Source: a virus (taxonomy: Duplodnaviria; Heunggongvirae; Uroviricota; Caudoviricetes). Taken from it: DNA of 64,000 bases. Shown in pieces: positions 9,086-62,442 of the stretch. The notes below the pieces were generated by a model. The model worked only from the letters and a program-made list of their open reading frames with translations. It was not told where the DNA came from and made no database searches. The DNA is taken from the IMG/VR virus record IMGVR_UViG_3300025162_001855. One strand, written 5' to 3'. Made by a program: the position numbers and the translations under genes. Positions within the stretch are counted from its first letter, which is position 1. Each line of letters opens with the position of its first letter.

Positions 9086-9168
9086 TGGTGCTGGCAGTAA
9101 GACTCGAACTTACGTAGGTTTCCCGACGGCTTACAAAACCGTTGCAATTGCCACTATGCGATGCCAGC
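9086..9168 (-). tRNA. tRNA-Thr(TGT), 83 nt with an extended variable region
   Basis: Acceptor GCTGGCA/TGCCAGC, anticodon arm ACGGT-TTTGTAA-GCCGT, T-arm GTAAG-TTCGAGT-CTTAC, encoded CCA. Confidence 0.45.
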
Positions 9169-11858: not shown

Positions 11859-11933
11859 TGGTGGGCCCACTAGGATTTGAACCTAGACTCGACGGTTTAT
11901 GAAACCGCTGCTTTGACCCTTAAGCTATAGGCC
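11859..11933 (-). tRNA. tRNA-Met(CAT), second CAT isoacceptor
   Basis: Acceptor GGGCCTA/TGGGCCC, anticodon arm GCGGT-TTCATAA-ACCGT, T-loop TTCAAAT, A73 and encoded CCA. Confidence 0.6.
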
Positions 11934-12548
11934 CGAAAATGTTCCTTTGCGAATCGCGTAAATATCTTGTTCGCGTATTATACGAAGTTTTCCAGGAAAA
12001 TGCAACCACTTGGCGCGATCTCTGTCGGTTTCATATCCCTTCACTTCAACGTACAGGTCCATAGATTCAATATAAAAATCTGGAAAGTATGTTCTGGTAC
12101 CATTCCATTCATATTCGAATCCGGTAGTTGCCCGATGTGGTTGTAATCCAACATTCTGGGCCCATCTATAAAATTCTAATTCCCACTTGCCCTGAAACTT
12201 TATACCATCTTCGATGATTTGTTTCGTTCTACCTCTATTAGAAGAAGTATACGCATCTGGATTGTTAGCAACCGCCAACTTCATCGATTCTGATGTTTTC
12301 TTTCTACTCTCCGCAGAACGTGCAAGTGTACCATTTTTTATTTTGGTAGCTAGTATCTTCTGTGTTGTTTCTTTTGCAACGACAGGCTTTGTCAATCCAT
12401 CGCGTGCCGCTTTTGTAAACTGGTTTGCACCTTTCTTACCGAGCATACCGTTTCGGTAGACTCTATTCTGGTTTTTGGGACAGCATCGTTCATGATTCTT
12501 GAGAGAATTTACGTTCTTACATAACCGATCACAGTATACACATTCCAT
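11925..12548 (-). CDS. C2HC zinc-finger plus PD-(D/E)xK homing-type endonuclease (paralog 2 of 3)
   Basis: N-terminal CVYCDRLCKNVNSLKNHERCC; C-terminal FPDFYIESMDLYVEVKG (D...EVK); 3' end overlaps tRNA-Met. Confidence 0.55.
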   Translation of the reverse strand: MECVYCDRLCKNVNSLKNHERCCPKNQNRVYRNGMLGKKGANQFTKAARDGLTKPVVAKETTQKILATKIKNGTLARSAESRKKTSESMKLAVANNPDAYTSSNRGRTKQIIEDGIKFQGKWELEFYRWAQNVGLQPHRATTGFEYEWNGTRTYFPDFYIESMDLYVEVKGYETDRDRAKWLHFPGKLRIIREQDIYAIRKGTFSGL

Positions 12549-12586: not shown

Positions 12587-13372
12587 TCATTTAGGCTCAA
12601 ACTTCTTGAAGCAATCCAAAAATTCTTGTGGTAGCAGTCCCGGCGGTGTATCGATAAAGGTCATATCGTCCCTACCATACAAATCCCCGCCCGATGCCAT
12701 TGTTGATTTGATGTGCTCAATGTTTGTGAACTCGGGCTTATTGAACTCCTGATCGGCAAAGTTAAAAATCTTGTTTTGAACTTGCTCGGGTGTCCCCCAA
12801 TAACTTAGATGCCACCCACCTTGGTGTATGCACATGAAATCGAATCGATTAATCCTAAACCAACTTGGACCCATCTCCTTGAATCGACCAACTGTGGTCA
12901 ATACCGGGCCATGCCAAATGGTTGTCATTGCTCTTTTGAGATTGAAGTAAAACAAAATCTGACCAAGCAGGATGTTCTTGTATCCAACAACTAGTTCTTT
13001 AGCGAACTGTTGATTGAATTTAGTCCTATCCGGAATCTCATCGACATCACTAATCATAATGTATGCGTCATCGGGTGCAACATGAAGCACTGTTGCAATT
13101 TGATCGCGTTGAGCATTGGCAAGGTCCGCTGGGAATGATGCCTTGGTAGCATCGAACTTTGATAGGTCAACCACATATGGAATATAGATAATCTTGTTTA
13201 GGTATTTGCCAAACCGATCCCAATGTTGAGGCAGGTTAAATGGTTTCTTCTTACCACTGTGCGTTGTATCAGCTTCGACAATAATGAAATAGTCAACATG
13301 CTCGGCCAAATATTCTAAACGCCCCTCCAATAGGTCATATTCATCAAAAAAGATAAAGCTATCAATAATCAC
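12587..13372 (-). CDS. GT17-like glycosyltransferase (paralog 1)
   Basis: N-terminal MIIDSFIFFDEYDLLEGRLEYL and a WHLSYWG block; paralogous to 13369-14172 and 57416-58213. Confidence 0.55.
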   Translation of the reverse strand: MIIDSFIFFDEYDLLEGRLEYLAEHVDYFIIVEADTTHSGKKKPFNLPQHWDRFGKYLNKIIYIPYVVDLSKFDATKASFPADLANAQRDQIATVLHVAPDDAYIMISDVDEIPDRTKFNQQFAKELVVGYKNILLGQILFYFNLKRAMTTIWHGPVLTTVGRFKEMGPSWFRINRFDFMCIHQGGWHLSYWGTPEQVQNKIFNFADQEFNKPEFTNIEHIKSTMASGGDLYGRDDMTFIDTPPGLLPQEFLDCFKKFEPK

Positions 13373-14172
13373 AGTGTCACCTCAAATTTACCAAAGCATT
13401 CTAAAAAATCTTTGGGTAGAGTAGTAGCATCCACGCGGACGAATTTCAAGTCTCGTCCATATAAATCTTTGCCTTCGGATACAACCTGTTTGATGTAATC
13501 GATATCGGTGTATCGGGCATTGTTATATTCTTGATGGGCCGAATTAATTATCTTGGCTTGGATGAATGCCGGATCCCCCCAATAGCTTAGGTGCCAACCC
13601 GAATCCAACACCCCGCGTAATTTAAACCTGTTATCACGAAACCATTGTGCGCCATTGGACTGTACATATTTGTTGAATGTTATTACAGTGCCGCGCCATT
13701 GATCAAGCTCCTTATGCTGGAGATTGAAATAGAACATGTCTTGAAAAGATACCACAGCCCCAACATCGGGCGTCAAGTGCTTCTTGGTAATGTCAATTAA
13801 ATTGCGAGATGGAATCTCGTCTAAGTCCGAGATAACAACTAGTGCATCATCGGGATAATCCTTTAGAGCTTCCGTGATTGCACCACGTTGGTCATTTTCA
13901 AAGCGCCAGTATCCACTACTGTAATCAAACTCTGTCAATTTCTTATCGAAGTCATACTTGGTTCGATCTGGAGTAAATTTAACGTATTGTATCTTATCAC
14001 TGTATGCAACAAGGCGTTCTTGATTTTCTAAATAGTTAAACGGTTTTGTCTTACCACTGAAGGTAAGGTTGGATTCGACAATGACAAACTTGTCAATCCT
14101 ATCATACAAATATTGCAATCTGCCTTCTAGGATATCTAGTTCATTGGCAAACATAAAGCAATCAATGATCAT
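13369..14172 (-). CDS. GT17-like glycosyltransferase (paralog 2, tandem)
   Basis: N-terminal MIIDCFMFANELDILEGRLQYL and a WHLSYWG block; overlaps its upstream paralog in an ATGA start/stop arrangement. Confidence 0.55.
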   Translation of the reverse strand: MIIDCFMFANELDILEGRLQYLYDRIDKFVIVESNLTFSGKTKPFNYLENQERLVAYSDKIQYVKFTPDRTKYDFDKKLTEFDYSSGYWRFENDQRGAITEALKDYPDDALVVISDLDEIPSRNLIDITKKHLTPDVGAVVSFQDMFYFNLQHKELDQWRGTVITFNKYVQSNGAQWFRDNRFKLRGVLDSGWHLSYWGDPAFIQAKIINSAHQEYNNARYTDIDYIKQVVSEGKDLYGRDLKFVRVDATTLPKDFLECFGKFEVTL

Positions 14173-14551: not shown

Positions 14552-14628
14552 TGGTGCTCGTGATAGGAGTCGAACCTACAACATCATGATCCTAAATCAT
14601 GCGCGTCTGCCAGTTGCGCCACACGAGC
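14552..14628 (-). tRNA. tRNA with anticodon TAG (a Leu anticodon) in a class-I body
   Basis: Acceptor GCTCGTG/CACGAGC, anticodon arm CATGA-TTTAGGA-TCATG, 6-nt variable loop, T-loop TTCGACT, A73 and encoded CCA. Confidence 0.45.
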
Positions 14629-15258: not shown

Positions 15259-15336
15259 TGGTACGGAAGAAGGGATTCGAACCCATACTGTAGAGATTTT
15301 AAGTCTCTTGTCTCCTGCCAATTGGACTACTTCCGC
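15259..15336 (-). tRNA. tRNA with anticodon TAA (a Leu anticodon) in a class-I body
   Basis: Acceptor GCGGAAG/CTTCCGT, anticodon arm AGAGA-CTTAAAA-TCTCT (perfect stem), 5-nt variable loop ACAGT, T-loop TTCGAAT, A73 and encoded CCA. Confidence 0.5.
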
Positions 15337-16423: not shown

Positions 16424-16519
16424 CGATAAATTGGTCCTCGCCCACGGGAATGATCCGTGCCGTTGCAGCCAGTCCAGCCACTCTCGCAGGTTTATAAAAC
16501 CTACCCGCACACCAGTGCT
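16424..16519 (-). other. atypical tRNA-like element (about 96 nt)
   Basis: 7-bp terminal stem CCTCGTC/GGCGAGG followed by ACCA, T-arm-like CACGG-ATCATTC-CCGTG and hairpin TAGGT-TTTATAA-ACCTG, but a roughly 27-nt extra insert; not a canonical cloverleaf. Confidence 0.25.
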
Positions 16520-16527
16520 GACGAGGA

Positions 16528-17242: not shown

Positions 17243-17733
17243 AAAATTGATCGACGGGCGCAGCACGCCCAAGGCACTTTCAACAGCAGCCTTTCCATCT
17301 GTGAGCTTACGCTCGATCACTGAGCCGAAATTTAAATGGTAGCGGGGGGACGATTTGCACATCCGAACCTTTTCAGGACTGGATTATGAGCCCAGTTTCG
17401 TTGACTACTTGAATACCCCGCAACAAACATTTCTATGTGGCCGGTGGGGTATCTTGGTACTCTGTACCATGCCCATCCTCCGTTTACTTTCCTTACCACA
17501 TAAAATCAAAACTAGACGACCTTTTGCCGCTGGGATAAAACCAGCACCACTTATCGGGAAGGCGGCCGAACCTTATTTGGTGGAGTATGTCGGCATCGAA
17601 CCGACCTGCATATTCTCGGTGCAAGCGAGACGTCCACTCCAAGCAGACCCATACCCCAAATTTAGTAGGATTCTCTCACCCTTGTCAAGTCTGATTCGCC
17701 CGACTTTCTCTAGCCATCTTTTCAATGGCAATT

Positions 17734-18688: not shown

Positions 18689-19000
18689 CTAATTATGCTT
18701 TATGTACTCTTTCTTCATGTACGAATCTAAAGCATCAACAATCTTCTTTACTCTATCGAGCTGGTTAGGACCAGTTCGATGCAATGTATTCTGGTGTAGA
18801 TTCTGCAACTCTAGTACGAGTTGATCCTCTGTGATATCTTGGTTTCTGATTTGCTCTAGCACAACCTTGTATTTGGTTGCGCACTCTGCAACACCAGCCG
18901 CATACGGAAAGCCGCTTGCGCAAGCACCTTTGTTCTCCAACGCTTCAATCAACATTTCGACATGTGGTTGAAGATCATCATACTTGAAAGCCATACACAC
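18689..19000 (-). CDS. hypothetical protein (103 aa)
   Basis: ORF track only. Confidence 0.35.
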   Translation of the reverse strand: MCMAFKYDDLQPHVEMLIEALENKGACASGFPYAAGVAECATKYKVVLEQIRNQDITEDQLVLELQNLHQNTLHRTGPNQLDRVKKIVDALDSYMKKEYIKHN

Positions 19001-19103
19001 CTCGTTACCATTACAAAGTCAGAATTGAAACCCCCCATCACGGCTACCACACCTTACGATGTCCTGTGACCGCACTACAGGTTACATGGCGTGCTTCAAA
19101 ATT

Positions 19104-19179
19104 TGGTGCCGCCCCCCGGGATCGAACCGGGCACACTACGCTCTTCAGGCGTATGCTCTACCAACTGAGCTAGAGCGGC
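19104..19179 (-). tRNA. tRNA-Phe(GAA)
   Basis: Acceptor GCCGCTC/GGGCGGC, D-arm GCTC-AGTTGGTA-GAGC, anticodon arm TACGC-CTGAAGA-GCGTA, T-loop TTCGATC, encoded CCA. Confidence 0.65.
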
Positions 19180-19377
19180 ATAATAAGATGCTGATGGTGT
19201 TTACCTACGTTTCAGTCCCCGAGTTAAACACAACCCTCGGACTTACTCTGCTAGGAAGTAGGGCGGGTCTTAACCGCACATCAGCATTGTTTGGCGACCG
19301 ACAGGGGTAACGATCCCCTCTGAATATCTTGCGTGACAGGCAAGCGACCACTCCATGCAGTCCCGTCGGCCATAAAT

Positions 19378-19466
19378 TGGCTGGTGGAGTTGGATTCGAA
19401 CCAACGATGAGGAATTAACCTGACAGATTAACAGTCTGTTCTCTGCTACCACTCGAGTACCCACCA
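19378..19466 (-). tRNA. tRNA with anticodon GTT (Asn) in a Tyr-like class-II body, 89 nt
   Basis: Acceptor TGGTGGG/TCCACCA, anticodon arm ACAGA-CTGTTAA-TCTGT, 17-nt variable arm with AGG/CCT hairpin, T-loop TTCGAAT, G73 and encoded CCA; body resembles E. coli tRNA-Tyr except GTA changed to GTT. Confidence 0.5.
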
Positions 19467-19470
19467 AAAA

Positions 19471-20100
19471 CTACTCGTGAATGAATTGTTTCGCTATACC
19501 AATATAAGTCTTGGTATCTTTAAACATTTTCTTCCACTCTATTCTTAACACTTTCCAACCGGCTTCGGCTAGAACTTGGTCTTTTCTTTTATCGCGCGCC
19601 TTAACTTCGTCAAAGCGTTGATGCTGCTCGCCATCAATCTCTATGGCCAATTTTTTATCAGGCCACGCAAAGTCAATTGCATAAATGCCAACAGGATATT
19701 CCCTGCTGTAATTCTTATCTTCAAATTCGTTTTCGATAACTTGTATGAAGAATTTTTCTGGCCAGGATGGCTCGTTATTCCAACGACTTTTTCCTATGTT
19801 CCACGCAGTACCGTTATCGTGCCGGGCTTTCATCTTAGCAGCAAGTTTTGCTTTTGTTTCGAGAGTATGCCGTCGCTTAGATGATCTAGCTGATAACTTT
19901 TGTCGTGTCTCCTTCGATATTACCGGAGGAGGTAAACCCAACTTTTTCGCCTTTATGAATTGATTTGAATTTGATACTTTGTCTCGGTTGTTTTTCATCC
20001 ATGTAACTTGTTTATTGGGGTTGTTATTGCACAACCGCTCATGATTTAACAAGCTATTTTGGCTCTTACACATTCGATCACAAAACTTACAATTGGACAT
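19471..20100 (-). CDS. C2HC zinc-finger plus Vsr/DUF559-like homing-type endonuclease (paralog 3 of 3)
   Basis: N-terminal CKFCDRMCKSQNSLLNHERLC; C-terminal IDFAWPDKKLAIEIDGEQH...RDKRKDQVLAEAGWKVLRI. Confidence 0.6.
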   Translation of the reverse strand: MSNCKFCDRMCKSQNSLLNHERLCNNNPNKQVTWMKNNRDKVSNSNQFIKAKKLGLPPPVISKETRQKLSARSSKRRHTLETKAKLAAKMKARHDNGTAWNIGKSRWNNEPSWPEKFFIQVIENEFEDKNYSREYPVGIYAIDFAWPDKKLAIEIDGEQHQRFDEVKARDKRKDQVLAEAGWKVLRIEWKKMFKDTKTYIGIAKQFIHE

Positions 20101-21236
20101 TTGGTAGTGCTCCTGTCTATGTATTTAGCTGCTCTACCGCTGAGCTACTTACCAATAAACTCTAATAACGGTGCCACCCAGTCCGCCGTTTGCAGACCAT
20201 ATTCCGTTATTCTGACTGTGCCCTTTCTTTCGTCTACAGAGTTTTGTTAATGCACAGTCCCCAAACTCAATCTACCAAATGGATTATCGCCCTCTTCTGA
20301 CGGCCCGAGTTTACGGACTGGACGCAAGGCTTCAAAAGCCCCGACTTACACCACAAGAAAAAGTGACTGCGTCCCCACCTTATATATTTACGCAATCTAG
20401 TTGCACGCCGATAGAAAGTGTAGACGGTATGTTCAATGTCTGTGCAACCGCCACCGTAGTACACTAGGGATATATCGGAGCCCCCTCTCGGCGTATTTTC
20501 AACGCTGGTCCACGGCGCCGTTGATCAGGCGACGACGGTTAGCTATTTTTATGTGATAGTTTACCGACCAAATTCAAAATATAATACAAGGCCACCATCC
20601 TGTATTGTGATCGTACTCCTTAATATTGGTTGCTGCAACTCACCTCAGTACGATCACCAGTTGCCACGCCAGGGGTCTGGCTTGACTGAGCCCCCTCTCG
20701 GTAGAGACGCTATCCTCTCTACTAGACTTCCAAAAGTATTAGTGGGCCGACCATCCACCAATTGATGTTGTGTCCTATCGTTTGTACCAGGGCCTTGCTT
20801 ATAGATATGTGGTGTAATGCCACATGACTCACAACCTCCCGCCCACGCATACAGAGCATGTATCGTATAGCCCAACTACGGTTGACGATCATCAACAAGG
20901 ACTTAGTTTAACACCAAGCAACACCTTGCGGTATTCTTCACGCCTTTATAGTGGGCCTCTTGTCCCCACGCACATCGCCGATTCTCACGGCCGGCTCCTT
21001 TGTTCCATCTCAGGGCATACAAGTATGCGGGATGGAGGTTTGCTTCACTGAATTTGACGAACAAGGACTCGAACCTTGTATTAACCCCTTTGGAATCGAA
21101 CCGTTCGGTGCCGCCGCGCCGCCTCACCAGAGGAATCGTCAAAATTTGAATGTCCCAACGGTTTTGAACCGTCTACCGGGCCACAAGGACCCTGCTGTGA
21201 CCAACACCGAGCGTGGCCTACGCCCCGGGACAAAAT

Positions 21237-21314
21237 TGGAGCACCGAGTCAGATTTGAACTGACGATGGTTTCGTTTTGCAGACGAATGCGTTGGACCAC
21301 TCCGCCACCGGTGC
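21237..21314 (-). tRNA. tRNA-Cys(GCA)
   Basis: Acceptor GCACCGG/TCGGTGC, anticodon arm TTCGT-CTGCAAA-ACGAA, T-arm GTCAG-TTCAAAT-CTGAC, U73 and encoded CCA. Confidence 0.6.
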
Positions 21315-21450
21315 ATTATATAGTTGGGGCAATGACGGACCGGTGATTAGCCGGAATCCTTAGCTTATCAGGCTTAGTCATTGCCCTCATGTAGTGCGGC
21401 GGGTTTGGGTTTACCGCCAACCCCAAGTCATTTGTATGGACTTGGACATT

Positions 21451-21535
21451 TGGTGGGCCAGGTAGGGTTCGAACCTACACCCCGATGGGGACTTCCGCTT
21501 TACAGGCGGATGCACTTCCACTTATGCGTCTGACC
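21451..21535 (-). tRNA. tRNA-Tyr(GTA), class II
   Basis: Acceptor GGGTCAG/CTGGCCC, anticodon arm TCCGC-CTGTAAA-GCGGA, long variable arm, T-arm GTAGG-TTCGAAC-CCTAC, A73 and encoded CCA. Confidence 0.6.
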
Positions 21536-21984
21536 CAAATAAAACGTGCGTTTGAAAGGAACACTGACCTTTCTCGACGCACAGCGGCATAAAATAGGGG
21601 CGGAATATCGGATCCGCCAAACGATGAGAGTTGCACTCACAGGTAGGTTGATAGGAACTAGTATACCTCGTACCTTCTGCTTGAATTCACGCACCTTTTT
21701 TCGTGATACGTCTGGACAGCTTGCCAGCTTTGACCGCCACTTGCTCTCGCCCCCTGTTACCCGTTGCAACGGTTGGCAGCAGGTCCGAGTAGATCGGTAC
21801 GGGCTCGTTGTGACTCGCGATTGCTCAGCGTAGTCGAATGGGAAGGGATGACACGGGTTTTCACCGCAAACGGACAAGTCACTCCGTATTTTATTTCGCA
21901 TCCAGCAGAACTCGGGAACTACCCCTTTACCACCAGTGCGTATTTGTCGGACTCGATCACCGACCCATCATCCCATTGAAACAG

Positions 21985-22069
21985 TGGTGCCCGAAGAGGG
22001 ACTCGAACCCCCACACCTTTCGGCGCCTGATTTTGAGTCAGGTGTGACTACCAATTCCACCATTCGGGC
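21985..22069 (-). tRNA. tRNA-Leu(CAA), class II
   Basis: Acceptor GCCCGAA/TTCGGGC, anticodon arm CCTGA-CTCAAAA-TCAGG, 13-nt variable arm, T-arm GGGGG-TTCGAGT-CCCTC, A73 and encoded CCA. Confidence 0.6.
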
Positions 22070-22639
22070 AAAAATAAGATCCGCTTTTCGTTGCAGAGTT
22101 GCAACTTGGCCACTTTATGCGTGGCTACCTCATTGAGGCGGTGCGGATTAACCCAAGAATATTAGCGACGGGGCGCAGCCATTTGAAATTTGCTTTCTGT
22201 CGTTTAAGACTTGGAGCAGGCATGATGATGCCCGCAAGTCCCCCGTGCTCATCAAAATTGAATTTCACATTTGCAGCAATCGAAAGTTACTGCGAACCAC
22301 CGTCGTATATTTGGGTGGGGGCTGTGAAAGTGCCCAGTTGCCGTGCATTTTACTCCCCGCGTTTCCACCACGGGTTTCATCCGACGTCCGCCCATATGAG
22401 CTTTGTTTAGTGTGGCGCTCGCAGTCACGTTCCGCGTTACCACATAATGAAAAACCCTGGGATCTTTCGATGCCAGGGTCTAGTTTAACAGATTTGTACT
22501 GTTGGGACTAGACCCCTAGCTTATCTCCCATATTCACTGTTCTAGGTAGAATGGTAAACTGGGAGAACCCGAGTTGCGACCAATAGGTTGCCAAGGCACC
22601 TTTGGCTGCTAATTTACTCTTTTCTATATGCATTCTTCC

Positions 22640-22890: not shown

Positions 22891-24099
22891 ATGTTGTTGA
22901 ATGACCTATTTGAAGCAGCACCCAAAAAAGCAGAGTTGAGATCCGGCGAGCGGAGGGACCTTGCTATAAAGTTGAAATACACCACCGAACTAATACGTCG
23001 GTTGGAAAGATTGCGCAGCACATTGAGCAGTTTGAATATGACCCGGGATACTGGTGTTATTAAATTGGATCGACAGATTGAGGCCTTACGTGCAAGAATT
23101 GGTACCGAACAGAAGAAGTTGGCCCAGACAATCGACAAACATCGCTCTATTGTTCCAGCAAAGGTTCAACAGTTATTCGCCAAGATGAAAGTGGAGTGCA
23201 GTGACTTTATAAAGACATTACACCTCACTGGACCAAGTTACTATTTGTATCGAGGCATCAAGGGTTTTGATAAGCCGGCATTTGTTGCCCAGAGTCGAAG
23301 CGATCGAAAAGCTAAGGATAGCAGCCCGGCAGTGGCCAAAATGTTCGATAAGATGTTAAGCGAGCTTGGTTACAAGGCATTGCGTAGCAACAGTATCTTT
23401 GTTACTTCCAGCGACAGCTCGGCAGGTTCGTACGGTACGGTATACATGATCTTTCCGCGAAATGGATTCAACTATACCTACACCAAGCATCGCGATTTGA
23501 TCCTTGACAACAATTCGATGAGTGATGTTGTTGATAAAGACGAGATGCAGAAATTCCTTAAGGAGTTCCAAGACTGGGTTGCAACACCAGTTGGTCAGGA
23601 ACAATTAACATTGGCCAAGGCATATGAAGGATTTGGTACACACAGCAGTGATCCAAATTCAGGATCCCTTCTCCTTCTATACAACATTATGATGGCCGCT
23701 GCCACAGACAATGCCACCAAACTAATCTATAAATTGAACGACGCTGCATCTTATACCAGCCCTAGCATACTCAACTATGTCTTTAAAGGTATGCCGGACA
23801 AATTTAGAAAAGTGGATATGAGTAGTCTTATATCACAAAAGAGCTTCCAGCAATACTTTGACCCACATTCAACGGATCTAGCTCAGGCAATTATGGATCG
23901 TGTGGAGATTTATATTTCGGGTACATATTATGCTTTACGATCAGATGTGTTCTCCGATTGGGTCTACGATGGCTTGCTAGCCGATTCCGATCCACACAAG
24001 CCTTGGGGTCCAACATACGCAAAAGAAAATCCTCCGGATTGGGAACCGGAGGATAATAAGTTTAGCTCGTATGATCCCGATAAGGATGATCCGTTTTAA
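22891..24099 (+). CDS. large member (402 aa) of a five-copy paralogous family of unknown function
   Basis: Shares YRG...RSNSIFVTSSDS...GTVYMIFPRNGFNYTYT core with the four tandem ORFs at 60047-63320; about 200-aa coiled-coil-rich N-terminal extension; only long plus-strand gene in the region. Confidence 0.6.
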   Translation: MLLNDLFEAAPKKAELRSGERRDLAIKLKYTTELIRRLERLRSTLSSLNMTRDTGVIKLDRQIEALRARIGTEQKKLAQTIDKHRSIVPAKVQQLFAKMKVECSDFIKTLHLTGPSYYLYRGIKGFDKPAFVAQSRSDRKAKDSSPAVAKMFDKMLSELGYKALRSNSIFVTSSDSSAGSYGTVYMIFPRNGFNYTYTKHRDLILDNNSMSDVVDKDEMQKFLKEFQDWVATPVGQEQLTLAKAYEGFGTHSSDPNSGSLLLLYNIMMAAATDNATKLIYKLNDAASYTSPSILNYVFKGMPDKFRKVDMSSLISQKSFQQYFDPHSTDLAQAIMDRVEIYISGTYYALRSDVFSDWVYDGLLADSDPHKPWGPTYAKENPPDWEPEDNKFSSYDPDKDDPF

Positions 24100-25148
24100 T
24101 CCTTCTCTGCTAGAAGGTATTGGTTCGAGATCACCTTAAACGAGAAGTTTGGATCTTCAATGCATCGCCAAACTACACCCTCTCGTACTTGGGCGTGAAG
24201 GGATGGACCATCGGCTGCTATCAACATCTTGGGCAATGAATCCAACGGCCGGAATGTTCCAAGTGATGGCACAAGTCGGCATAGCGTTGTATCAAGTCCT
24301 TCATACCGCAACTTCTCATAGAACAACTCTACAGCTCGAGTAGTATAGAAACTTTGACTATCGATGTCGTAAATGTCAAAGATGAACAAGGTGTGACAAC
24401 CAAGCCCTTCTCGGTTACCTTGCACGCCGGGACCCATTAGCTCGCCTTGGATAGCAATGTTCAACCCAAACTTGGCCAGGCAAATAGCCAACTTTGATTC
24501 GGTGGCAGTCTTGATAAACGAGTTATCCTTGTTCTCTTCGGAGATAATCAATTCTAGATTGCGACTGCAAACACCAACATCGCCATCCTTGTAATACACA
24601 GTGCAGGAACTTCCATCGAGCTTAATCGATACCTTAAAGTCCTTGCGTGAAAACTTCTCCATGACCTTGTCGTAGATGTTTTGAATACGCTCCTGGTCGG
24701 TCTTTGGAATGAAGGATGGGAAGTTACCCTTCATCTTGCCGGCAAGTTGAGCCGGGATTGGTGCCTCCCACTTTTGAATACCCAAATGGTAAGCAAGATC
24801 CACACCCTCGGCAAACTTGAGCCACGGAGAACCAGTTACAGTCTCAACAATGTCTGTTGGCAATAGCAAACCCTGGCTCACTTGTCCGCGTAGCTTAATT
24901 GTACGGAGCCGGTTACCTTCGACATTGTTGTACACCTTTGGTGCCAAACCCTTTGAAAGGAACGGAGCCATTGTGTGCGGGACCCAAGAGTCAACCTCCA
25001 AATAGAGTACCATGTCGCCAACATTGTAACGACCAACTTGATCCACAACCCACCAACCATCTACGCGATATGCGCAAATCTTGTCGGCGTTTGGGATTGC
25101 AGCGACTTCGGCAATTTGCCGGATCGTTGCTAACTTACGCTCACTCAC
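24096..25148 (-). CDS. ATP-dependent polynucleotide (RNA/DNA) ligase, nucleotidyltransferase superfamily
   Basis: KLDGSS motif I (KxDG) in a 350-aa ORF with an N-terminal extension. Confidence 0.55.
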   Translation of the reverse strand: MSERKLATIRQIAEVAAIPNADKICAYRVDGWWVVDQVGRYNVGDMVLYLEVDSWVPHTMAPFLSKGLAPKVYNNVEGNRLRTIKLRGQVSQGLLLPTDIVETVTGSPWLKFAEGVDLAYHLGIQKWEAPIPAQLAGKMKGNFPSFIPKTDQERIQNIYDKVMEKFSRKDFKVSIKLDGSSCTVYYKDGDVGVCSRNLELIISEENKDNSFIKTATESKLAICLAKFGLNIAIQGELMGPGVQGNREGLGCHTLFIFDIYDIDSQSFYTTRAVELFYEKLRYEGLDTTLCRLVPSLGTFRPLDSLPKMLIAADGPSLHAQVREGVVWRCIEDPNFSFKVISNQYLLAEKD

Positions 25149-29077: not shown

Positions 29078-29152
29078 ATGATACGGGATTTGGATCCAAT
29101 TTGCAACATCTAAATTCCCAATGATTTCAACAACTTATAAGTCATTGATTTT
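29078..29152 (-). promoter_or_regulatory. conserved promoter cassette, copy 1
   Basis: TTGCAA, 17-nt spacer, TATCAT, preceded by the conserved upstream element AATCAATGACTTATAAGTTGTTGAAATCATTG. Confidence 0.5.
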
Positions 29153-30029
29153 CAAGGAAACTTCGTATCACTGTAATTCGTCCCTGTTCGGACAACTTTG
29201 CAAACTCGCCCTTCCAGGGTTCAATCCAATCTAACAGCGGGTAATATTCCTCGTCAATCGTCTTGCGAAAATCCGGAGTCTGTATACGTTCGAGGAACTT
29301 CTCTTCCTTCATGCGCCCCAGGAACTTGGTCACCAAATAATATGGCGACTTGATCTTGAGTGCAATGTCCTTGCCGTATGCAACAAACCCTTCGTGCTTG
29401 CAAGTCTTGGCCTCCTGCACTACATCGGAGAAGCGACATACCTTCCACTCGGGGCGCAGGTATCCTTGCGCCTTGGCCACAGCGTCTAGAATTTCTTCAC
29501 TGAGCATCTTGCCAGTAGAAATTACTCGGGCTCCGATCAAATACGCTCCTAAGTTTTCCTTGATGATGTGTGGATCCGATTCGTCGCAGATCTCAAACAA
29601 CCAAGTCGTCGGAAATCCAAAGTGATGGGCTGGTACGAAACACTTGAGGTGCTTCTCAACCATTACAGCAAAATCCGAATCCAATGAACCAGTTGTCGAA
29701 TAAATGATATCATCTCGGGTACGGTCCCAAGTAATGGCACCCATGAACCCATTTACCTTCCGTACAGCAATAACCATTTCGTCACGCGGGATATCAACAC
29801 CGCGCTCAAAGCGATTGTATATCTTCTGGAATGGACGCACTACTACGTTCCAATCCGCGTCCACAACCAATCCACGACATTCTTCAAGAAGGTCGTTCCA
29901 CAGTGCATCGTAGAATACCTTGCGGGTATACTTGATGACATACAATCCCGGATACTTTGTTGACTCGCGACGAGTTATCAACTTTGGGTTGGCATCAATA
30001 AATTCGCGTAACTGTGCGATGTCAATCAT
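29142..30029 (-). CDS. T4 RnlA-like RNA ligase 1
   Basis: N-terminal similarity to the recalled T4 Rnl1 sequence (LEECRGLVVD...RPFQKIYN versus ALECRGIMFE...RPMEKFFN); candidate nucleotidylation lysine in RKVNGF; directly upstream of and overlapping the kinase gene. Confidence 0.5.
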   Translation of the reverse strand: MIDIAQLREFIDANPKLITRRESTKYPGLYVIKYTRKVFYDALWNDLLEECRGLVVDADWNVVVRPFQKIYNRFERGVDIPRDEMVIAVRKVNGFMGAITWDRTRDDIIYSTTGSLDSDFAVMVEKHLKCFVPAHHFGFPTTWLFEICDESDPHIIKENLGAYLIGARVISTGKMLSEEILDAVAKAQGYLRPEWKVCRFSDVVQEAKTCKHEGFVAYGKDIALKIKSPYYLVTKFLGRMKEEKFLERIQTPDFRKTIDEEYYPLLDWIEPWKGEFAKLSEQGRITVIRSFLENQ

Positions 30030-31004: not shown

Positions 31005-32015
31005 CTATTCTTCGAGGTATTGAATAAACTCCTTGGCGGCATTCTGCCAGGTGATATCCTTCACTGTACTATATACCTTCTCCCGCGATAAAGACATACA
31101 ATTTATGACAGAAGACAGTAGATTCGAGCCCGTGTACCCATTTACCCCGTTTTTGATTTGATCTATGGGTCCAGTTACGGGATATGCTGCAACTGGGGTT
31201 CCACAAGCCATAGCTTCCAAAATAACAATCCCATATGTATCTGTGCGGCTCGGGAATACAAAGACATCGGCTTGTCTATATTGTTCCGCTAGTAATTCTC
31301 CAAATTTGTAACCCACAAAATGCACGTCGGGATATTTCTTCTTTAGACGCTTTCTATCAGGCCCGTCACCAACCACCACCTTATTAATGTTGGGTAAGTA
31401 TATGCGGCAGAAGTCCTCAATGTTCTTCTCTTTACTCACTCGCCCGACATACAGCAACGTTTTGACTTTATTCTTTTGGTGTGGCTTTAATGGATCCGGC
31501 CGGAAGTGATCATCGTAGCCCTTACCCATAACTCTAGTGTTCCAATTCGGGTGTTCTCGAGCAGTGGAGTTTGACGAAACAATAACTGTTTTGGCACTAC
31601 GATGAAACCAATCAAAATACCAACTGGTATACTTTACTGGGATCTTAGTAATGTGTTCGATAAATTCCGGAAACTTGGTATGATACGCAGTGGTATACTT
31701 GATGTGCATTGCATCTAGCACTCGCTTGGCTTTATAACCAATTGGTCCTTCTGTAGCAATATGGAAGCGGCAAACAGGAGCCTCATCTAAATTGCGTTTG
31801 ATGATTTCCTTGATACGGTTGCGAGTAACAATCGACAGCCCAATTTCTTTATAGAATGGAAGTTTGATGGTCGTAAACATACTTGGTTCAATAATCTCGA
31901 CCTCGTGCCTCTCATGGTCGATATGTTGAATGGTGTTGATGTATGTTGTGACTACACCGTTTACTTGTGGATACCAAGCATCGGTGAATATTACGATTCG
32001 CTTTTTGTTAACCAA
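31005..32015 (-). CDS. GT4-family (group 1) glycosyltransferase
   Basis: GT-B C-terminal block VFVFPSRTDTYGIVILEAMACGTPV (E-x7-E-like) in a 336-aa ORF. Confidence 0.6.
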   Translation of the reverse strand: MVNKKRIVIFTDAWYPQVNGVVTTYINTIQHIDHERHEVEIIEPSMFTTIKLPFYKEIGLSIVTRNRIKEIIKRNLDEAPVCRFHIATEGPIGYKAKRVLDAMHIKYTTAYHTKFPEFIEHITKIPVKYTSWYFDWFHRSAKTVIVSSNSTAREHPNWNTRVMGKGYDDHFRPDPLKPHQKNKVKTLLYVGRVSKEKNIEDFCRIYLPNINKVVVGDGPDRKRLKKKYPDVHFVGYKFGELLAEQYRQADVFVFPSRTDTYGIVILEAMACGTPVAAYPVTGPIDQIKNGVNGYTGSNLLSSVINCMSLSREKVYSTVKDITWQNAAKEFIQYLEE

Positions 32016-36476: not shown

Positions 36477-37853
36477 TTACTGAGCCTTAACGCGCTCTCG
36501 AATCAAGCTCAGGCTTTCCTCGCGTACCAGCTTACCATCTTCGTACACTACTTCAAGCACTGGATTGTGGACATGGTCACTACCTTCAATATCGGTGTGG
36601 TATGTATTGTTGATGTGATTGTAGTAGAGTTCCAAGCGACCCTTCTTTGACTTCTTGCCAAAATCCGTAACGGGATCCTTAAACACATCGCGCCATACGC
36701 CGTTCACCTTGACTGCGCTTGCCTTCATTGCAAACTTTTGCGTGTCCCGGTTCATGTGCTGGAGCAACGCACCACCCATACCAAACGCCACGTTATCCGC
36801 ACTGTAGCCCATCATCCAAAGCCTTGCGAGAATGTCCTTAATGCTCTGCTCGTTGATGCCGTCACCTTGGATGACACGAACATTGTTGAGTAGCTTGTAC
36901 CCATCTTTGGTTAGTGTGTGACCAAACTTCTTGTCCAGCAGTACCACCGAATGTGCAACAATGTCTGTTGGGTTACCCGAGTCCGGACGAACGACAAGCG
37001 TAGCACCACTGTCGATCACTTGCTGGCGTAGTGTACCACCCCAGATGTTCTCAATGGCGTTGAACAGATCGTAGCTGTCGGAAACTACTGCAACTAGCGC
37101 ACCGGGCTTGGCGAACTGCTTCAGCATATTTGCGTAAGCATCTTCCTCATGCTCCTTGCCCCAGCTGGTAATAGTGCTGTGTTCCGCTGCCGGAATACTA
37201 AAGCCCGCCATGTGCTCGTTGTAATACTTGCGGGCGAACATTAGCGCCGGAACGTTGTCGGTACCCTTGAAGTTTACAAGATGTGCAGCACCACCAATAG
37301 CCGCACTCTCCAGCGAACTTACGCCACGCGCACCAAAGTCGTGCAGCTTGAAGTCAAGACCATCGAGGTTGTTGGCACTGGTATCCAGTCGCTCCTTGAT
37401 GATCTGGCGAATGCTATGACTGATCGTTGCCACTGTGGTGGGATACCATACCGCACGAAGCAGGGCAGTCTCAACGTAGCTCGTCAACCAGGGCACTTCT
37501 GGGTCTGTGTTCTCCACCGTGACCAAAACGTTATGCGTTGGGACAATCGTTCCTTCGCGCACTGCCTTGATCTTGATTGGCAGAAAGCCATTATGCTGGA
37601 GAAGAATGTGCTTCCACCCTGCCTCATTGAAGGGCACACCGTGTAGCGCATACACTTCCTTCGCCTCCGCGATATCCTCGTATGTGATCGGCTTCAGCAG
37701 GTATTCCTTGATAAATGCCTGCAGGCCGAAAAATAGCGTGTGATCATATTCGCCCCCGCGTGACTCGATGTAACTGAATACATTGGTTGTACCTTCTGGG
37801 TACTGCGCGAAATGCGAAACCTTGTACGAATCGGTATTTAGAATCATGTTCAT
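36477..37853 (-). CDS. nadV: nicotinamide phosphoribosyltransferase (NAMPT, NadV-like)
   Basis: 458-aa ORF with conserved NAMPT blocks (DSYD, DGLDFKLHDFGARG, RPDSGNP). Confidence 0.8.
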   Translation of the reverse strand: MNMILNTDSYKVSHFAQYPEGTTNVFSYIESRGGEYDHTLFFGLQAFIKEYLLKPITYEDIAEAKEVYALHGVPFNEAGWKHILLQHNGFLPIKIKAVREGTIVPTHNVLVTVENTDPEVPWLTSYVETALLRAVWYPTTVATISHSIRQIIKERLDTSANNLDGLDFKLHDFGARGVSSLESAAIGGAAHLVNFKGTDNVPALMFARKYYNEHMAGFSIPAAEHSTITSWGKEHEEDAYANMLKQFAKPGALVAVVSDSYDLFNAIENIWGGTLRQQVIDSGATLVVRPDSGNPTDIVAHSVVLLDKKFGHTLTKDGYKLLNNVRVIQGDGINEQSIKDILARLWMMGYSADNVAFGMGGALLQHMNRDTQKFAMKASAVKVNGVWRDVFKDPVTDFGKKSKKGRLELYYNHINNTYHTDIEGSDHVHNPVLEVVYEDGKLVREESLSLIRERVKAQ

Positions 37854-38173: not shown

Positions 38174-39253
38174 TTACGCCCTGTTAATCATCTTAGATGC
38201 AATCGAGTAGTGGTCCTCGTACATCTCTGCGGTCATTGTGTAAAACTTAGAAAGTGGAACCCACTTGGCGCGTTCAGCATCATCACTTCCGCGTACCTTT
38301 GGTAGGTTGCGCTCGTGTAGCACAATCAGATATGCGTGTGTAATCGTGCGTCCGCGTTCACTGCGGTTGGGATGATCAAATACTTGTGAACCTTTGATGC
38401 TGGCACGCAGCACATCTCCATGTATCCGAATGCGAGTCTCTTCTTCGAGTTCACGAAGCATAGAATCTTCAATCCTCTCATTTGGACCGAGGAAGCCACC
38501 GGGCAATGCCCACAACCCCTTACCCGGCGCCATACGACGCTTGATGAGTAGAATGTGCCCATTGCAAATGACCACAGCGTCCGTTGTCACAAACACTGGT
38601 TGGAATGGTGCATTGGACCACATCTGCTTATAGTCCTTAAGGAACTTGTGTTCTTCACAGAGTGCGTTATTAAGGGCGGGGTTATTCTGGCGCCACGTAT
38701 CGATGAAATTCTTTACGCGCTCGGGCATAACATCTGCCGGTACCATCTTGTTACCAAACAGAATGTCACGGATGGTAGTCGAGTCCAGTGTATCGAAGTT
38801 TGGAACCTCAACAACTTCGTAATTTGGAAACATATCGAGATAGTAAGACGAATCGTCTTTGTGGTGGCCAATGATACAAACAGACTTGCCAACTGCCGTA
38901 TCATAAATGTTATCTAATTCGTTTTCGATTTCTTGCTGCACCATAGCAACCCACTGTTGGTCATTGTAGAGATCGTCTACAAGTGGTGCCGATATTGTGC
39001 CCGGGGGTAACATTGCAGCCCGTTCGTCATAAGTGAACGGGTTCTTAATGTTGCGTGCAATAAAGGAACTGCCGATGAGCACCAGGACGTTGTCCGAATG
39101 CTTTTTGGCTTCCTCAATCAACTTTTCGTGGGCATTATGGAATGGCTGAAAGCGCCCGATGATCACTGCTAGATCATAGCGCCTGGGTGTGATGGCCTTA
39201 TCGGACCATCCCATTGGGGACTTGTGTATATGAGCTGTTGTATTCATTACCAT
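38174..39253 (-). CDS. natV: bifunctional NMN adenylyltransferase / Nudix hydrolase (NatV-like)
   Basis: N-terminal nucleotidyltransferase motif GRFQPFHNAH and C-terminal Nudix box GGFLGPNERIEDSMLRELEEETRI. Confidence 0.75.
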   Translation of the reverse strand: MVMNTTAHIHKSPMGWSDKAITPRRYDLAVIIGRFQPFHNAHEKLIEEAKKHSDNVLVLIGSSFIARNIKNPFTYDERAAMLPPGTISAPLVDDLYNDQQWVAMVQQEIENELDNIYDTAVGKSVCIIGHHKDDSSYYLDMFPNYEVVEVPNFDTLDSTTIRDILFGNKMVPADVMPERVKNFIDTWRQNNPALNNALCEEHKFLKDYKQMWSNAPFQPVFVTTDAVVICNGHILLIKRRMAPGKGLWALPGGFLGPNERIEDSMLRELEEETRIRIHGDVLRASIKGSQVFDHPNRSERGRTITHAYLIVLHERNLPKVRGSDDAERAKWVPLSKFYTMTAEMYEDHYSIASKMINRA

Positions 39254-57415: not shown

Positions 57416-58213
57416 TCAACTATTCATCCACAATCCAAATATTGACCAGAAATCTTTTGGATAGCTTCTGAAACTAACATTGTCGACATCCAATAATGCA
57501 CCCGAGTATAAATCAATCTTGTTCGCTCTGCGGAAATCAATTGTAGTCGGATTTTTGTTTTCCGGCACATTCAATTCCTGGTGGGCAAAACTTTCAATTT
57601 TACTAATCGTATCCCCGGCAATACCAAAGTTCGAAAGGTGCCACCCACTGTTTAGTAACTGTTCTCTAGAATCCCATGTATGACGCAAATTGGTCAACGT
57701 CATGTACCTTAGATCCTGCACCCTTGCTGCAAATGGTCCGTTCCAAGCATTCTTGCCGGCCCATAGAAGATTGTAGTGCAGCAATACCATCGACAAGGAA
57801 ATAGGGATTCCCATAGTCTTGAGTTTGGAGATTATATCCCTGTTTGGAATTTCATCGAGATCCGAACATATCACAATATCGCTATCTTCGAAGAACTTGA
57901 GTGTCTCCATGGCAAAGTTGCGCTGGTCGTATTCCAACTGCCAATATGGCGACTGTGGATCGTACCCCGAACAAACATATCCATCGAACTGATATTGGTG
58001 CTGCTGAACAATGTATGGCGTATAGATAATCTTGTCTCTATACGGTTCAAACATCTTGTAGTTTGCCAGATAGTTCAATTGCTTTACTTTACCCGAAAAG
58101 GTATAGTTACTCTCTACGATTACGAATTTGTCAACGTAATCGTAGAGGTATTTGAGCCGCTTTTCTAAAAGAACTAACTCGTTATTGAGTAGTGTGCAAT
58201 CAATAACACTCAT
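57416..58213 (-). CDS. GT17-like glycosyltransferase (paralog 3)
   Basis: Start at MSVIDCTLLNNELVLLEKRLKYLYD, homologous to the N-termini of 12587 and 13369; WHLSNFG block. Confidence 0.5.
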   Translation of the reverse strand: MSVIDCTLLNNELVLLEKRLKYLYDYVDKFVIVESNYTFSGKVKQLNYLANYKMFEPYRDKIIYTPYIVQQHQYQFDGYVCSGYDPQSPYWQLEYDQRNFAMETLKFFEDSDIVICSDLDEIPNRDIISKLKTMGIPISLSMVLLHYNLLWAGKNAWNGPFAARVQDLRYMTLTNLRHTWDSREQLLNSGWHLSNFGIAGDTISKIESFAHQELNVPENKNPTTIDFRRANKIDLYSGALLDVDNVSFRSYPKDFWSIFGLWMNS

Positions 58214-58512
58214 TCTTCCACCGGAACGTACACTTCGCGGCATTCGCGACGAACGTGTTCGTAGCCATTGTAGTCATAAAACACTACATCGCGGCATTCC
58301 ATTACACGACGCATCGGTGGCTGATATTCCCGACTGCGCTCGGATTCGTGTACAATGATGCCACCAAGGATAGCACCACCAATTAGCCAGCCGAGATCGT
58401 GTCCATGACGTTCACCATGAAACTCCCTGTGCTCGCCACGATGTTCGTCGGCTTTCACCACACCCGAAAATGTGAATGCTGCCAACATAACCGCAAGTAA
58501 AATTTTCTTCAT
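58210..58512 (-). CDS. secreted His/Glu-rich small protein
   Basis: Signal peptide MKKILLAVMLAAFTFSGVVKA followed by DEHRGEHREFHGERHGHD. Confidence 0.4.
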   Translation of the reverse strand: MKKILLAVMLAAFTFSGVVKADEHRGEHREFHGERHGHDLGWLIGGAILGGIIVHESERSREYQPPMRRVMECRDVVFYDYNGYEHVRRECREVYVPVEE

Positions 58513-59415: not shown

Positions 59416-60069
59416 TTACTTGCTGATGTTGCGCCTTGCCTTTTGGTCGGCTATCCATTTTGTAGCAGCCGGACGATTTGGGGGCGTGCGGACAAACTTG
59501 TCCAATTCTTTTCCGTAATAAGACAGATCTGGATACTCCTCACCGCTGTTGTCCACGATGAGTAGCTTGTTGCCAAATATGCGCTGAAGATCGCCCAAGT
59601 TGTCATTGACCTCTTGGTGCATCTGTTTCACCAAACTCGGATCAACTCTTCTGGTGCGGAGCTCGTTGCGGGTGATTGCGGTCTTGAGGTCGGTGTTAAC
59701 GAAAATGGCCATTGTCTCATAACCCAAATCTTCGAGTAATTTTTTGGTTTGCTTCAAACGATCGATCTTGCGACCGGTACCATCGATAATCATACCCAAT
59801 CGATGTTGTAAAAAGAGTTCAAATCTCTTGTCGGTTTTGTTACCGGCGTGCCAATATAGTTCCTTGGCGTAGTTACCGGTGATACCGGCTTTGGACATGA
59901 GTAGGGTATAGAAACGATCAATATCAACTGTACGCAACCCGGTGCCACCAAGTAGCTTATTGGCTATGGTTGTCTTACCCGATCCCGGACCACCAAGAGT
60001 AAACACGGCCTTGAATATGCCCGGATCATTTATACCTTCGATTAAGTTAGCCCCAGTCATCATAGTCAT
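59416..60069 (-). CDS. P-loop kinase (zeta-toxin/Pnk-like NTPase fold)
   Basis: Walker A GGPGSGKTT and IIDGTG block; start chosen at an internal Met to limit overlap with the upstream gene. Confidence 0.45.
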   Translation of the reverse strand: MTMMTGANLIEGINDPGIFKAVFTLGGPGSGKTTIANKLLGGTGLRTVDIDRFYTLLMSKAGITGNYAKELYWHAGNKTDKRFELFLQHRLGMIIDGTGRKIDRLKQTKKLLEDLGYETMAIFVNTDLKTAITRNELRTRRVDPSLVKQMHQEVNDNLGDLQRIFGNKLLIVDNSGEEYPDLSYYGKELDKFVRTPPNRPAATKWIADQKARRNISK

Positions 60070-61697: not shown

Positions 61698-62442
61698 ACT
61701 GCGGACCTTCGTAATTCGGCTTGCACCCCGGCGGTTTTATACATTTCTTCGGAGACATACACCGCAGCATCACACTTGATCATTACTTCGTGATTGGTGT
61801 GTAAAGCATTTTGCAGGCCGGTGTTAATATCAAAAAGGTTTTTAACTTTAGCCAGGTCATATGTCTTTGGATCGTCAAGTGGGGCCAAATATATGTAGCC
61901 ACCATGACTGTGCTTCTCGACAAAACGCTTCTTTGTATACCTTGCAAGCTCGTCGGCTTTCAACATGAGAAGATCTTCATATGGTGGGCTCCACGCATAT
62001 TCAAAATTACCAATTGGGAAGATGGCATACCTATCACCGTAATAACCAGCGGAGCCATAGTCACCAACAAATATGCTATTCGACCGAGTAACTGGCGATT
62101 TGATTAACGATAGCATTGCATTAAAGGCATTGTGCATTTCCATCGATGATCCAAGTGGCAGTCTATCCGGTCTAGTCTTTCTGACAAAGACATGACCAGT
62201 TGGCCTTGTGTATTAATACCACGCCATGCAGTAACACCGCCGCTGCCGCCGTTACCGGTTAATTTGATCCAACGTGCGCAATGTGTTCGCAAATAATGTA
62301 CCACCAAACCAGCATAGTGACTCAATGGCAGTGAGGGATCAAAATCTATTTCTGGAACGGACTGTGGCTTATATGGTGTGGAGTCTGTGGCCTTCTTGGC
62401 TCTCTCGATTGGGCCGTCTTCAAATAGTTCCATTATCTTCAC
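61694..62442 (-). pseudogene. member C of the paralogous family, frameshifted
   Basis: ORF 62104-62442 carries the N-terminal AWRG...ERLDRID region and ORF 61694-62143 carries the HNAFNAML...RSNSIFVGDYGS...FPIGNFEYAWSP core in another frame; together they span the length of member B. Confidence 0.45.

Follow-up and report, generated by a model that had tools for sequence, protein, structure and literature searches.

A tRNA gene with an asparagine anticodon and a long variable arm in the tRNA island of a Caudoviricetes virus

The tRNA gene and the conservation of its architecture

The stretch of DNA analysed here (64,000 nt, in the following referred to as the window) is the IMG/VR virus record IMGVR_UViG_3300025162_001855, in which ARAGORN predicts a tRNA-Asn(gtt) gene of 89 nt, including an encoded CCA end, on the minus strand of a large tRNA island (Table 1). 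The predicted cloverleaf consists of an acceptor stem of 7 bp, a D stem of 3 bp, an anticodon stem of 5 bp, a variable-arm hairpin of 3 bp, and a T stem of 5 bp. The 5' half of the RNA reads UGGUGGG UA CUC GAGUGGUAGCA GAG A ACAGA CUGUUAA UCUGU and is continued in the 3' half by CAGGUUAAUUCCUCAUC GUUGG UUCGAAU CCAAC UCCACCA G CCA. The Rfam tRNA covariance model RF00005 assigns 49.5 bits to the gene (gathering score 29), with E-values of 5e-8 in a 24-kb search and 4.6e-10 in a 221-base search. All model positions 1-71 are aligned, GUU occupies the anticodon positions with high posterior probability, and 13 nt of the variable region as well as 2 nt of the D loop are handled as insertions. ARAGORN and RF00005 thus agree on the 89-nt tRNA with a long variable arm and a GTT anticodon that had been described in an earlier note made from the sequence alone, and the anticodon arm ACAGA-CUGUUAA-UCUGU and the G73 given there were confirmed as well; covariance-model scoring had been proposed there as a check. 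No alternative fold that places another triplet in the anticodon loop was given by either of the two. The single-sequence minimum-free-energy fold contains no clean cloverleaf (z = -0.98 compared to shuffles), a result that is uninformative for tRNAs, and the covariance model together with covariation is used as structural evidence in its place.

The marks of a bacterial tRNA-Asn, i.e., the anticodon G34-U35-U36, G73, and the pair U1-A72, are all present, the last of them being absent from the earlier note. The body deviates from class I, which has a variable loop of 4-5 nt, a D stem of 4 bp, and no supernumerary D-loop base, and corresponds to a Tyr-type class II body with a 3-bp arm stem, 4 unpaired bases on its 3' side, and a D arm laid out as in E. 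coli tyrU. In place of the marks of tRNA-Tyr (A73, G1-C72, and GUA) the molecule carries G73, U1-A72, and GUU. The 3-bp stem followed by 4 unpaired bases does not match the arm geometry of tRNA-Ser either, and of the Ser acceptor marks G73 and G2-C71 are present, whereas position 1-72 is occupied by U-A and not by G1-C72. Acceptor and T stems are arranged in the canonical 7/5 manner and not in the 8/4 or 9/3 manner of allo-tRNAs. Features related to translation are kept throughout, namely the 7/5 arrangement, U8, A14, G18G19, CUGUUAA, the T loop UUCGAAU, G73, and the encoded CCA. In its sequence, the molecule combines, as a mosaic, an architecture of the Tyr type with identity parts of the Asn type.

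By a sensitive blastn search the full-length gene was matched to the annotated tRNA-Asn of phiKZ and approximately 20 phiKZ-like Pseudomonas phages. The phiKZ gene (PHIKZ_t02, annotated with 89 nt) and its counterparts, e.g., in phiHQ, T2P, PA1C, and OMKO1, are 73-74% identical to the window copy and share with it U1-A72, G73, the encoded CCA, U8-A9, CUGUUAA, the T loop UUCGAAU, and a variable region composed of 1 nt, a 3-bp hairpin, and 4 nt. Their D arm (CCCGAGUGGYAGCAGGG) has a 3-bp stem and an 11-nt loop, as in the window. Acceptor, anticodon, variable, and T stems of phiKZ and the window differ by compensatory changes, the hairpin being AGG/CCU with a 6-nt loop in the window and GGC/GCC with a GAAA loop in phiKZ. 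A gene of the homing-endonuclease type adjoins the tRNA gene in both cases, in phiKZ an HNH endonuclease gene located just downstream; similarity of the flanking DNA was not detectable between phiKZ-like phages and the window. The phiKZ homologue has been annotated as tRNA-Asn since genome deposition, and the phage tRNAs of phiKZ were detected during infection. The comparison with related phage genomes, proposed as a check in the earlier note, thus recovers the GTT anticodon along with the long arm. Since the same GTT and architecture occur in phiKZ-like phages and approximately 100 IMG/VR contigs, the anticodon cannot be due to a sequencing error.

Twelve distinct sequences, derived from the window, three phiKZ-like phages, seven IMG/VR contigs, and one metagenome-assembled genome (MAG) of the Thermoguttaceae, form a subfamily whose membership was set by the D-arm motif of the window (YCGAG(U)UGGUAGCAGRG, conserved in the 12 members). 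Subfamily members are 64-74% identical to the window copy. In their alignment, standard pairs occupy 98.6% of the cells and fall to 32-55% when the partners are slid by one to three columns; both-sided changes were observed for 17 of the 23 pairs, a number reached by none of 500 shuffles. All five helices covary, including the variable arm with all three stem pairs. Within the acceptor stem, six of the seven pairs covary freely and U1-A72 is invariant (12 out of 12), in the anticodon stem four of the five pairs covary. G73 is likewise found in all 12 members, and the variable-region layout of 1 nt, hairpin, and 4 nt (C-R-Y-Y) in every member examined. The window tRNA shows the complete phiKZ-type set of U1-A72, G73, D-arm motif, and variable-region layout. 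Due to the covariation in all helices, a pseudogene or decaying gene and a chance hairpin are ruled out, and the extra arm is under selection and kept by compensatory change. An intron as explanation of the extra sequence was rejected, since in the phage genes the extra bases belong to the variable region, where they form a covarying stem. With its hairpin in the variable region, accompanied in this subfamily by a matching D arm of class II, the body is unlike that of every described tRNA-Asn.

Long-armed GUU tRNAs with G73 and a variable-region hairpin, as in the window, are also encoded by the T4-like Aeromonas phages Aeh1, phiAS5, PX29, 44RR2.8t, and 31, and are annotated as tRNA-Asn in most of these GenBank records. 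Unlike the window copy, they carry G1-C72 and the D arm GGCUCAAAGGUUGAGC and fall outside its subfamily. Many of the long-armed GUU tRNAs outside the subfamily have an ordinary 4-bp D stem; hence what these tRNAs have in common is the long arm and not the D arm. The design is not categorically new, with homologues already present in GenBank as tRNA-Asn, without comment in the literature found: no description of a long-armed tRNA-Asn was encountered in the full-text literature searched, which leaves out most subscription journals.

The occurrence of the design was assessed by scans for a GTT anticodon loop located 20-32 nt before a T arm, in which a tRNA(GTT) predicted by ARAGORN was regarded as long from 82 nt upwards; counts refer to the matches listed. 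The long-arm scan of IMG/VR yielded at least 96 long tRNA(GTT) genes. A second IMG/VR scan, covering short and long spacing, gave 108 new loci with 95 ordinary and one long tRNA(GTT), as well as 12 loci known from the long-arm pattern, nine of which contain a long-armed gene. Roughly one in ten phage tRNA(GTT) with the scanned T loop is long-armed in the sampled part of IMG/VR. In case of 185,579 prokaryotic species genomes, 11 long GTT tRNAs were obtained among the 120 matches listed for the long-arm pattern. Eight prokaryotic genes of this type are situated in arrays of 10-36 tRNAs per 8 kb (Mycobacterium, Verrucosispora, Thermoguttaceae, Saprospiraceae, and others), and two on archaeal contigs (L203 and L210) appear to contain introns. 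Two single genes in bacterial contigs, L140 5615-5700 (a Limisphaerales MAG) and L227 2271-2358, encode long-armed GUU tRNAs with G1-C72 and G73 and are possible chromosomal examples in bacteria. The ratio of true to chance matches among those listed is 96:24 in viral and 11:109 in prokaryotic sequences, which, under the assumption of a similar chance-match rate per base, corresponds to an approximately 40-fold higher density in viral contigs.

An ordinary tRNA-Asn is also present in 22 of 99 long-arm loci; in most of these 99 loci, the long-armed gene is the only tRNA-Asn within the stretch fetched. Long arms on other isotypes are more frequent in IMG/VR loci with a long-armed tRNA-Asn (79 of 956) than in loci with an ordinary one (17 of 562, p = 3e-5), most clearly for Thr(tgt) with 14 of 43 versus 1 of 45.

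Amino acid identity and decoding

Bacterial Asn identity is determined by the anticodon and G73 (PMC9976931), and U1-A72 is required by bacterial GatCAB (PMC9976931; PMC2330236). For Tyr identity, A73 is critical, G1-C72 is used in bacteria, and both U35 and the long variable arm contribute; G73 is an antideterminant against LeuRS as well as TyrRS, and the pairs G1-C72 and G2-C71 are kept by most bacterial tRNA-Ser (PMC9976931). The 113 unique long-armed GUU tRNAs have U1-A72 in 80 and G1-C72 in 32 cases, and G73 in 106, compared to U1-A72 in 65 and G73 in 91 of the 95 ordinary phage tRNA-Asn. In phage tRNA-Tyr (48 sequences) G1-C72 occurs in 40 and A73 in all 48, in phage tRNA-Leu (106) position 1-72 is G-C in 48 and G-U in 37 with A73 in 100, and in phage tRNA-Ser (75) G1-C72 is found in 57 and G73 in 59. 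The acceptor end of the long-armed GUU tRNAs carries the signature of ordinary phage tRNA-Asn and is unlike that of phage tRNA-Tyr, tRNA-Leu, and tRNA-Ser. Concerning the arms, those of the long-armed tRNA-Asn have a stem of 3-4 bp and 3-4 unpaired bases on the 3' side and resemble the arms of phage tRNA-Tyr (modes of about 3 bp and about 3 bases), not those of phage tRNA-Ser (4-7 bp and 0-1 base); phage tRNA-Leu has 3-4 bp and 1-2 bases.

The gene is the sole tRNA-Asn, and carries the sole GTT anticodon, among the 42 tRNAs predicted by ARAGORN in the window, so that the statement of the earlier note that no second GTT tRNA is present holds. When the nicotinamide phosphoribosyltransferase (NAMPT) of the window is aligned with four homologues, its AAY codons coincide with Asn at 46 of 104 positions, with Ser at 3, and with Tyr at 1, which indicates that the phage uses AAY as Asn. 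Acceptor-end signature, AAY usage, and the similarity of the tRNA core to ordinary tRNA-Asn (see below) favour an Asn-accepting tRNA over charging with Ser or Tyr. Probably the gene encodes the phage's own translation-competent, Asn-accepting elongator tRNA in class II shape, the charging with Asn being what the identity rules predict. The tRNA would be made from island transcripts and matured with the CCA end already in place, GUU and G73 would be read by the AsnRS of the host or by an AspRS that is non-discriminating (ND-AspRS), in which case GatCAB would convert Asp-tRNA(Asn) to Asn-tRNA(Asn) through U1-A72, and the charged tRNA would decode AAC and AAU.

Nematode nev-tRNAs are charged with Leu. 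Like the window tRNA, they (cited in PMC7954030) and the bacterial allo-tRNAs, which have Ser or Ala identity and an 8/4 or 9/3 acceptor/T architecture (PMC5389517), combine a long arm with an anticodon outside Leu, Ser, and Tyr. Both are charged according to the identity elements of their body, whereas in the window tRNA the acceptor end agrees with the Asn anticodon and the 7/5 architecture is canonical. A serine-accepting missense tRNA analogous to these two groups, onto which SerRS would load Ser for insertion at Asn codons as mistranslation or partial recoding, is regarded as improbable. The essential SerRS elements, long arm and G73, are indeed both present (PMC5389517; PMC9976931; PMC7609411), SerRS ignores the anticodon, and G2-C71 is found as well, but U1-A72 is invariant in the subfamily while most bacterial tRNA-Ser, including all four tRNA-Ser genes of the window, have G1-C72. 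Furthermore, SerRS is sensitive to arm geometry to the extent that a single bulge abolishes charging (PMC7590224), and the 3-bp stem with 4 unpaired bases differs from the 4-7 bp and 0-1 base of phage tRNA-Ser. The acceptor end shows the same statistics as that of ordinary tRNA-Asn, and the phage, whose sole tRNA-Asn is this gene, uses AAY as Asn.

A tyrosine-accepting tRNA, i.e., a Tyr body with an A36 to U change that is charged by TyrRS via G34, U35, and the long arm and brings Tyr to Asn codons, would account for the resemblance of D arm, T arm, and arm geometry to tRNA-Tyr, and U35 and the long arm do contribute to Tyr identity (PMC9976931). This explanation is nevertheless extremely improbable, since the critical A73 and the identity pair G1-C72 are replaced by the antideterminant G73 (PMC9976931) and by U1-A72, both invariant in the subfamily, whereas A73 is present in 48 of 48 phage tRNA-Tyr and AAY is aligned with Tyr only once in 104 cases. 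There is also little probability for a molecule that does not decode, either a tRNA-shaped decoy or regulator, e.g., a bait for a host anticodon nuclease or a tRNA-binding defence protein, or a decaying copy. In favour of it, a counteraction against tRNA-targeting enzymes of the host has been suggested for phage tRNAs (PMC10264068), RNA-repair genes are present in the window, and a normal tRNA-Asn is kept along with the long-armed one in the 22 loci mentioned above. Every translation feature is conserved, however, decay is excluded by the covariation in all helices, and most long-arm loci are without another tRNA-Asn in the stretch fetched, as is the whole island of the window.

Several points weigh against an Asn-accepting elongator tRNA and against the role proposed for its arm. 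AsnRS and AspRS, both class II synthetases, approach the tRNA from the variable-loop side, and the long arm could clash with them. A supernumerary D-loop base is rejected by bacterial GatCAB, and the window tRNA has two extra bases; as P. aeruginosa, the host of phiKZ, lacks AsnRS and obtains Asn-tRNA by the indirect route only (PMC2330236), a D loop of this antideterminant-like type means that the amidation step is not assured. Long arm and G73 together also constitute the core of serine identity. Given their co-occurrence in 22 of 99 loci, long-armed and ordinary tRNA-Asn might not be equivalent. The RNA-repair genes are circumstantial as support for a role of the arm. Finally, the scan patterns allow only CTGTTAA as loop and GGTTCRANTCC as T arm, and prevalence was derived from the first 120 matches per scan.

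Origin and possible role of the long arm

In the earlier note the gene had been regarded as a Tyr-like class II tRNA and possibly as a recoded duplicate, consistent with tRNA diversification within the island. The Tyr-like body is borne out by the 3-bp D stem with G13/A22, the 11-nt D loop, the short arm stem with unpaired 3' bases, and 68% identity to E. coli tyrU, which also shares UUCGAAU; tyrU differs from the window copy by G1-C72, A73, GUA, and 3 instead of 4 unpaired bases after the hairpin. The identity parts, on the other hand, are of the Asn type. E. coli asnT has U1-A72, G73, U8-A9, and CUGUUAA in common with the window copy and differs by a 4-bp D stem, an 8-nt D loop, and a 5-nt variable loop (61.5% identity). 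Both references are verified genes taken by coordinates; a blastn search of the window tRNA against all complete E. coli genomes gave no match. The same partition is seen in the phiKZ copy, whose D arm is 75% identical to tyrU and 52% to asnT and whose T arm is 88% and 59% identical, respectively, while the anticodon arm matches tyrU by 76% (13 of 17) and asnT by 100% (17 of 17), and the acceptor end (U1-A72, G73) is of the asnT type.

A separate tRNA-Tyr(gta) is present in the island, as stated in the earlier note (with the end given there as 21535 shifted by one position, see Table 1), but it is only 59% identical to the long-armed gene, its D arm is built from a 4-bp stem and an 8-nt loop, and it carries G1-C72 and A73, so that a recent recoded duplicate is excluded. 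The same mismatch is seen in four other subfamily loci that contain a tRNA-Tyr in the stretch fetched. Instead of reflecting local diversification, the design is old, conserved, and widespread in phages, and it is common in their tRNA islands, that of phiKZ included. After masking of the anticodon and removal of the arm, the long-armed GUU tRNAs as a group most often had an ordinary tRNA-Asn as nearest neighbour (60 of 114), compared to a tRNA-Tyr for 10 and a tRNA-Ser for 10. A hairpin flanked by one base and four bases corresponds to a class I loop of 5 nt that is interrupted after its first base, and is compatible with an insertion into tRNA-Asn. A hairpin insertion into tRNA-Asn and an ancient descent of the subfamily from tRNA-Tyr fit the layout of the variable region equally.

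Due to the covariation of the arm, a tolerated insertion without function is less likely. Adjacent to the island, the window contains genes for RNA repair and modification (Table 1), encoding an RNA ligase of the Rnl2/PHA02142 type, a ligase of the T4 Rnl1 type, a SpoU-family methylase, a PNK-3'-phosphatase-like HAD protein, and a Ro/TROVE-like RNA-binding protein, which is apparently split into two ORFs. This inventory suggests that the phage is involved in the damage and repair of tRNAs, and an evasion or countering of host tRNA-targeting enzymes has been proposed for phage tRNAs (PMC10264068). On these grounds a structural disguise or handle is ranked first among the guesses: with low confidence, it is tempting to speculate that the arm marks the phage tRNA as structurally distinct from the host tRNA-Asn. 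Such a difference could allow the tRNA to escape host tRNA-targeting enzymes or to be handled selectively by phage enzymes. It is rather unlikely that the arm serves as a functional tag on a set of phage tRNAs, in which Asn would be the commonest member besides Thr(UGU), Ile(UAU), and Met/Ile(CAU) of the same phages and which would form a natural, partly orthogonal set. In a variant of this idea, the enlarged D loop may block GatCAB in hosts without AsnRS, and the tRNA may bring Asp or Ser to Asn codons.

According to the usual rule, long variable arms are confined to Leu, Ser, and bacterial Tyr tRNAs, in addition to the selenocysteine tRNA (PMC7609411; PMC9976931). A long-armed Asn tRNA kept by selection contradicts this rule, and does so in phages as well studied as phiKZ, Aeh1, and 44RR2.8t. 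If the tRNA is charged with Asn, AsnRS, or ND-AspRS together with GatCAB, would have to tolerate a class II body, with consequences for identity rules and for how orthogonal tRNAs are designed. Should the arm give protection against tRNA-targeting enzymes of the host, phages would have a new means of counter-defence that is based on structure, in addition to the mutations of the anticodon loop proposed so far. For both questions phiKZ offers a tractable system.

Gene content of the window

The genes surrounding the tRNAs are phage-like, and the tRNAs of the island are interspersed with homing-endonuclease-like ORFs. One of these combines a zinc finger with a nuclease fold of the DUF559/MTES_1575 type and terminates 4 nt upstream of the 5' end of the tRNA-Asn gene, and a zinc finger of the same type is found in another ORF of the island. 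Enlarged variable regions occur on five further tRNAs of class I isotypes. Conversely, three tRNA-Leu are class I shaped, as is about a third of the phage tRNA-Leu in the sampled loci (21 of 60, unbiased sample).

Table 1. Positions of the long-armed tRNA gene, its structural elements, and further features of the window.
Feature	Position	Strand	Remarks
tRNA-Asn(gtt)	19378-19466	-	89 nt including encoded CCA
Acceptor stem, 5' strand UGGUGGG	19460-19466	-	pairs with 19382-19388 (UCCACCA); first pair U1-A72, last pair G7-U66
D arm CUC-GAGUGGUAGCA-GAG	19441-19457	-	3-bp stem, 11-nt loop, class II type; two loop bases more than E. coli asnT
Anticodon arm ACAGA-CUGUUAA-UCUGU	19423-19439	-	anticodon GUU at 19430-19432, 7-nt loop
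Variable region C-AGG-UUAAUU-CCU-CAUC	19406-19422	-	17 nt: one base, hairpin, four unpaired bases
T arm GUUGG-UUCGAAU-CCAAC	19389-19405	-	ARAGORN, RF00005, subfamily alignment
Discriminator G73	19381	-	read from sequence
Encoded CCA	19378-19380	-	read from sequence
tRNA island	901-22069	-	42 tRNA genes, all on the minus strand, all 20 amino acids covered (ARAGORN)
tRNA-Tyr(gta)	21451-21536	-	
tRNAs of class I isotypes with enlarged variable regions	9086-9168, 16432-16526, 17337-17422, 17578-17657, 19292-19371	-	Thr(tgt) 83 nt, Ile(tat) 95 nt, Met or Ile2(cat) 86 nt with hairpin, Ala(tgc) 80 nt, Asp(gtc) 80 nt
Class I shaped tRNA-Leu (cag, tag, taa)	901-977, 14552-14628, 15259-15336	-	77-78 nt, variable loops 4-5 nt
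Homing-endonuclease-like ORF next to tRNA-Asn	19471-20100	-	
ORF with zinc finger of the same type	11925-12548		
Intervals with short, mutually overlapping ORFs	20100-21237, 21536-21985		approximately 1.1 kb and 0.45 kb
RNA repair/modification ORFs	24096-25148, 29142-30029, 48212-48820, 50123-50638, 50616-51701, 52356-52859		
NAD salvage pair	36477-37853, 38174-39253		
Paralogous ORFs matching phrog_11975	22891-24099, 60047-60967, 62439-63320		function unknown
Glycosyltransferase ORFs	12587-13372, 13369-14172, 57416-58243, 31005-32015		three GT17-like, one GT4

Close relatives of the window phage were found neither in INPHARED nor in IMG/VR. A megablast search of positions 19000-22200 against phage genomes gave no match, and tRNA-sized matches only were obtained in the distant mode. 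Relatives found with the RNA ligase do not exceed 50% amino acid identity, and the long-armed tRNA-Asn is present in none of their 15 loci; searches with NAMPT and the Ro-like protein gave only distant phage matches. A Pfam scan of 40 window ORFs detected neither an aminoacyl-tRNA synthetase nor an amidotransferase. The two intervals of the island listed in Table 1 contain no convincing ORF and have no Rfam match at the gathering threshold.

NAMPT and an NMN adenylyltransferase/Nudix fusion protein constitute an NAD salvage pair, for which the best phage match is Ralstonia phage RsoM2USA with 60% amino acid identity. Furthermore, three paralogous ORFs that all match phrog_11975 and four glycosyltransferase ORFs are present, and two of the GT17 genes are located within the tRNA island. 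In one of the phage contigs retrieved in the RNA ligase search, a tmRNA gene (L366 3685-4125) adjoins the tRNA genes.

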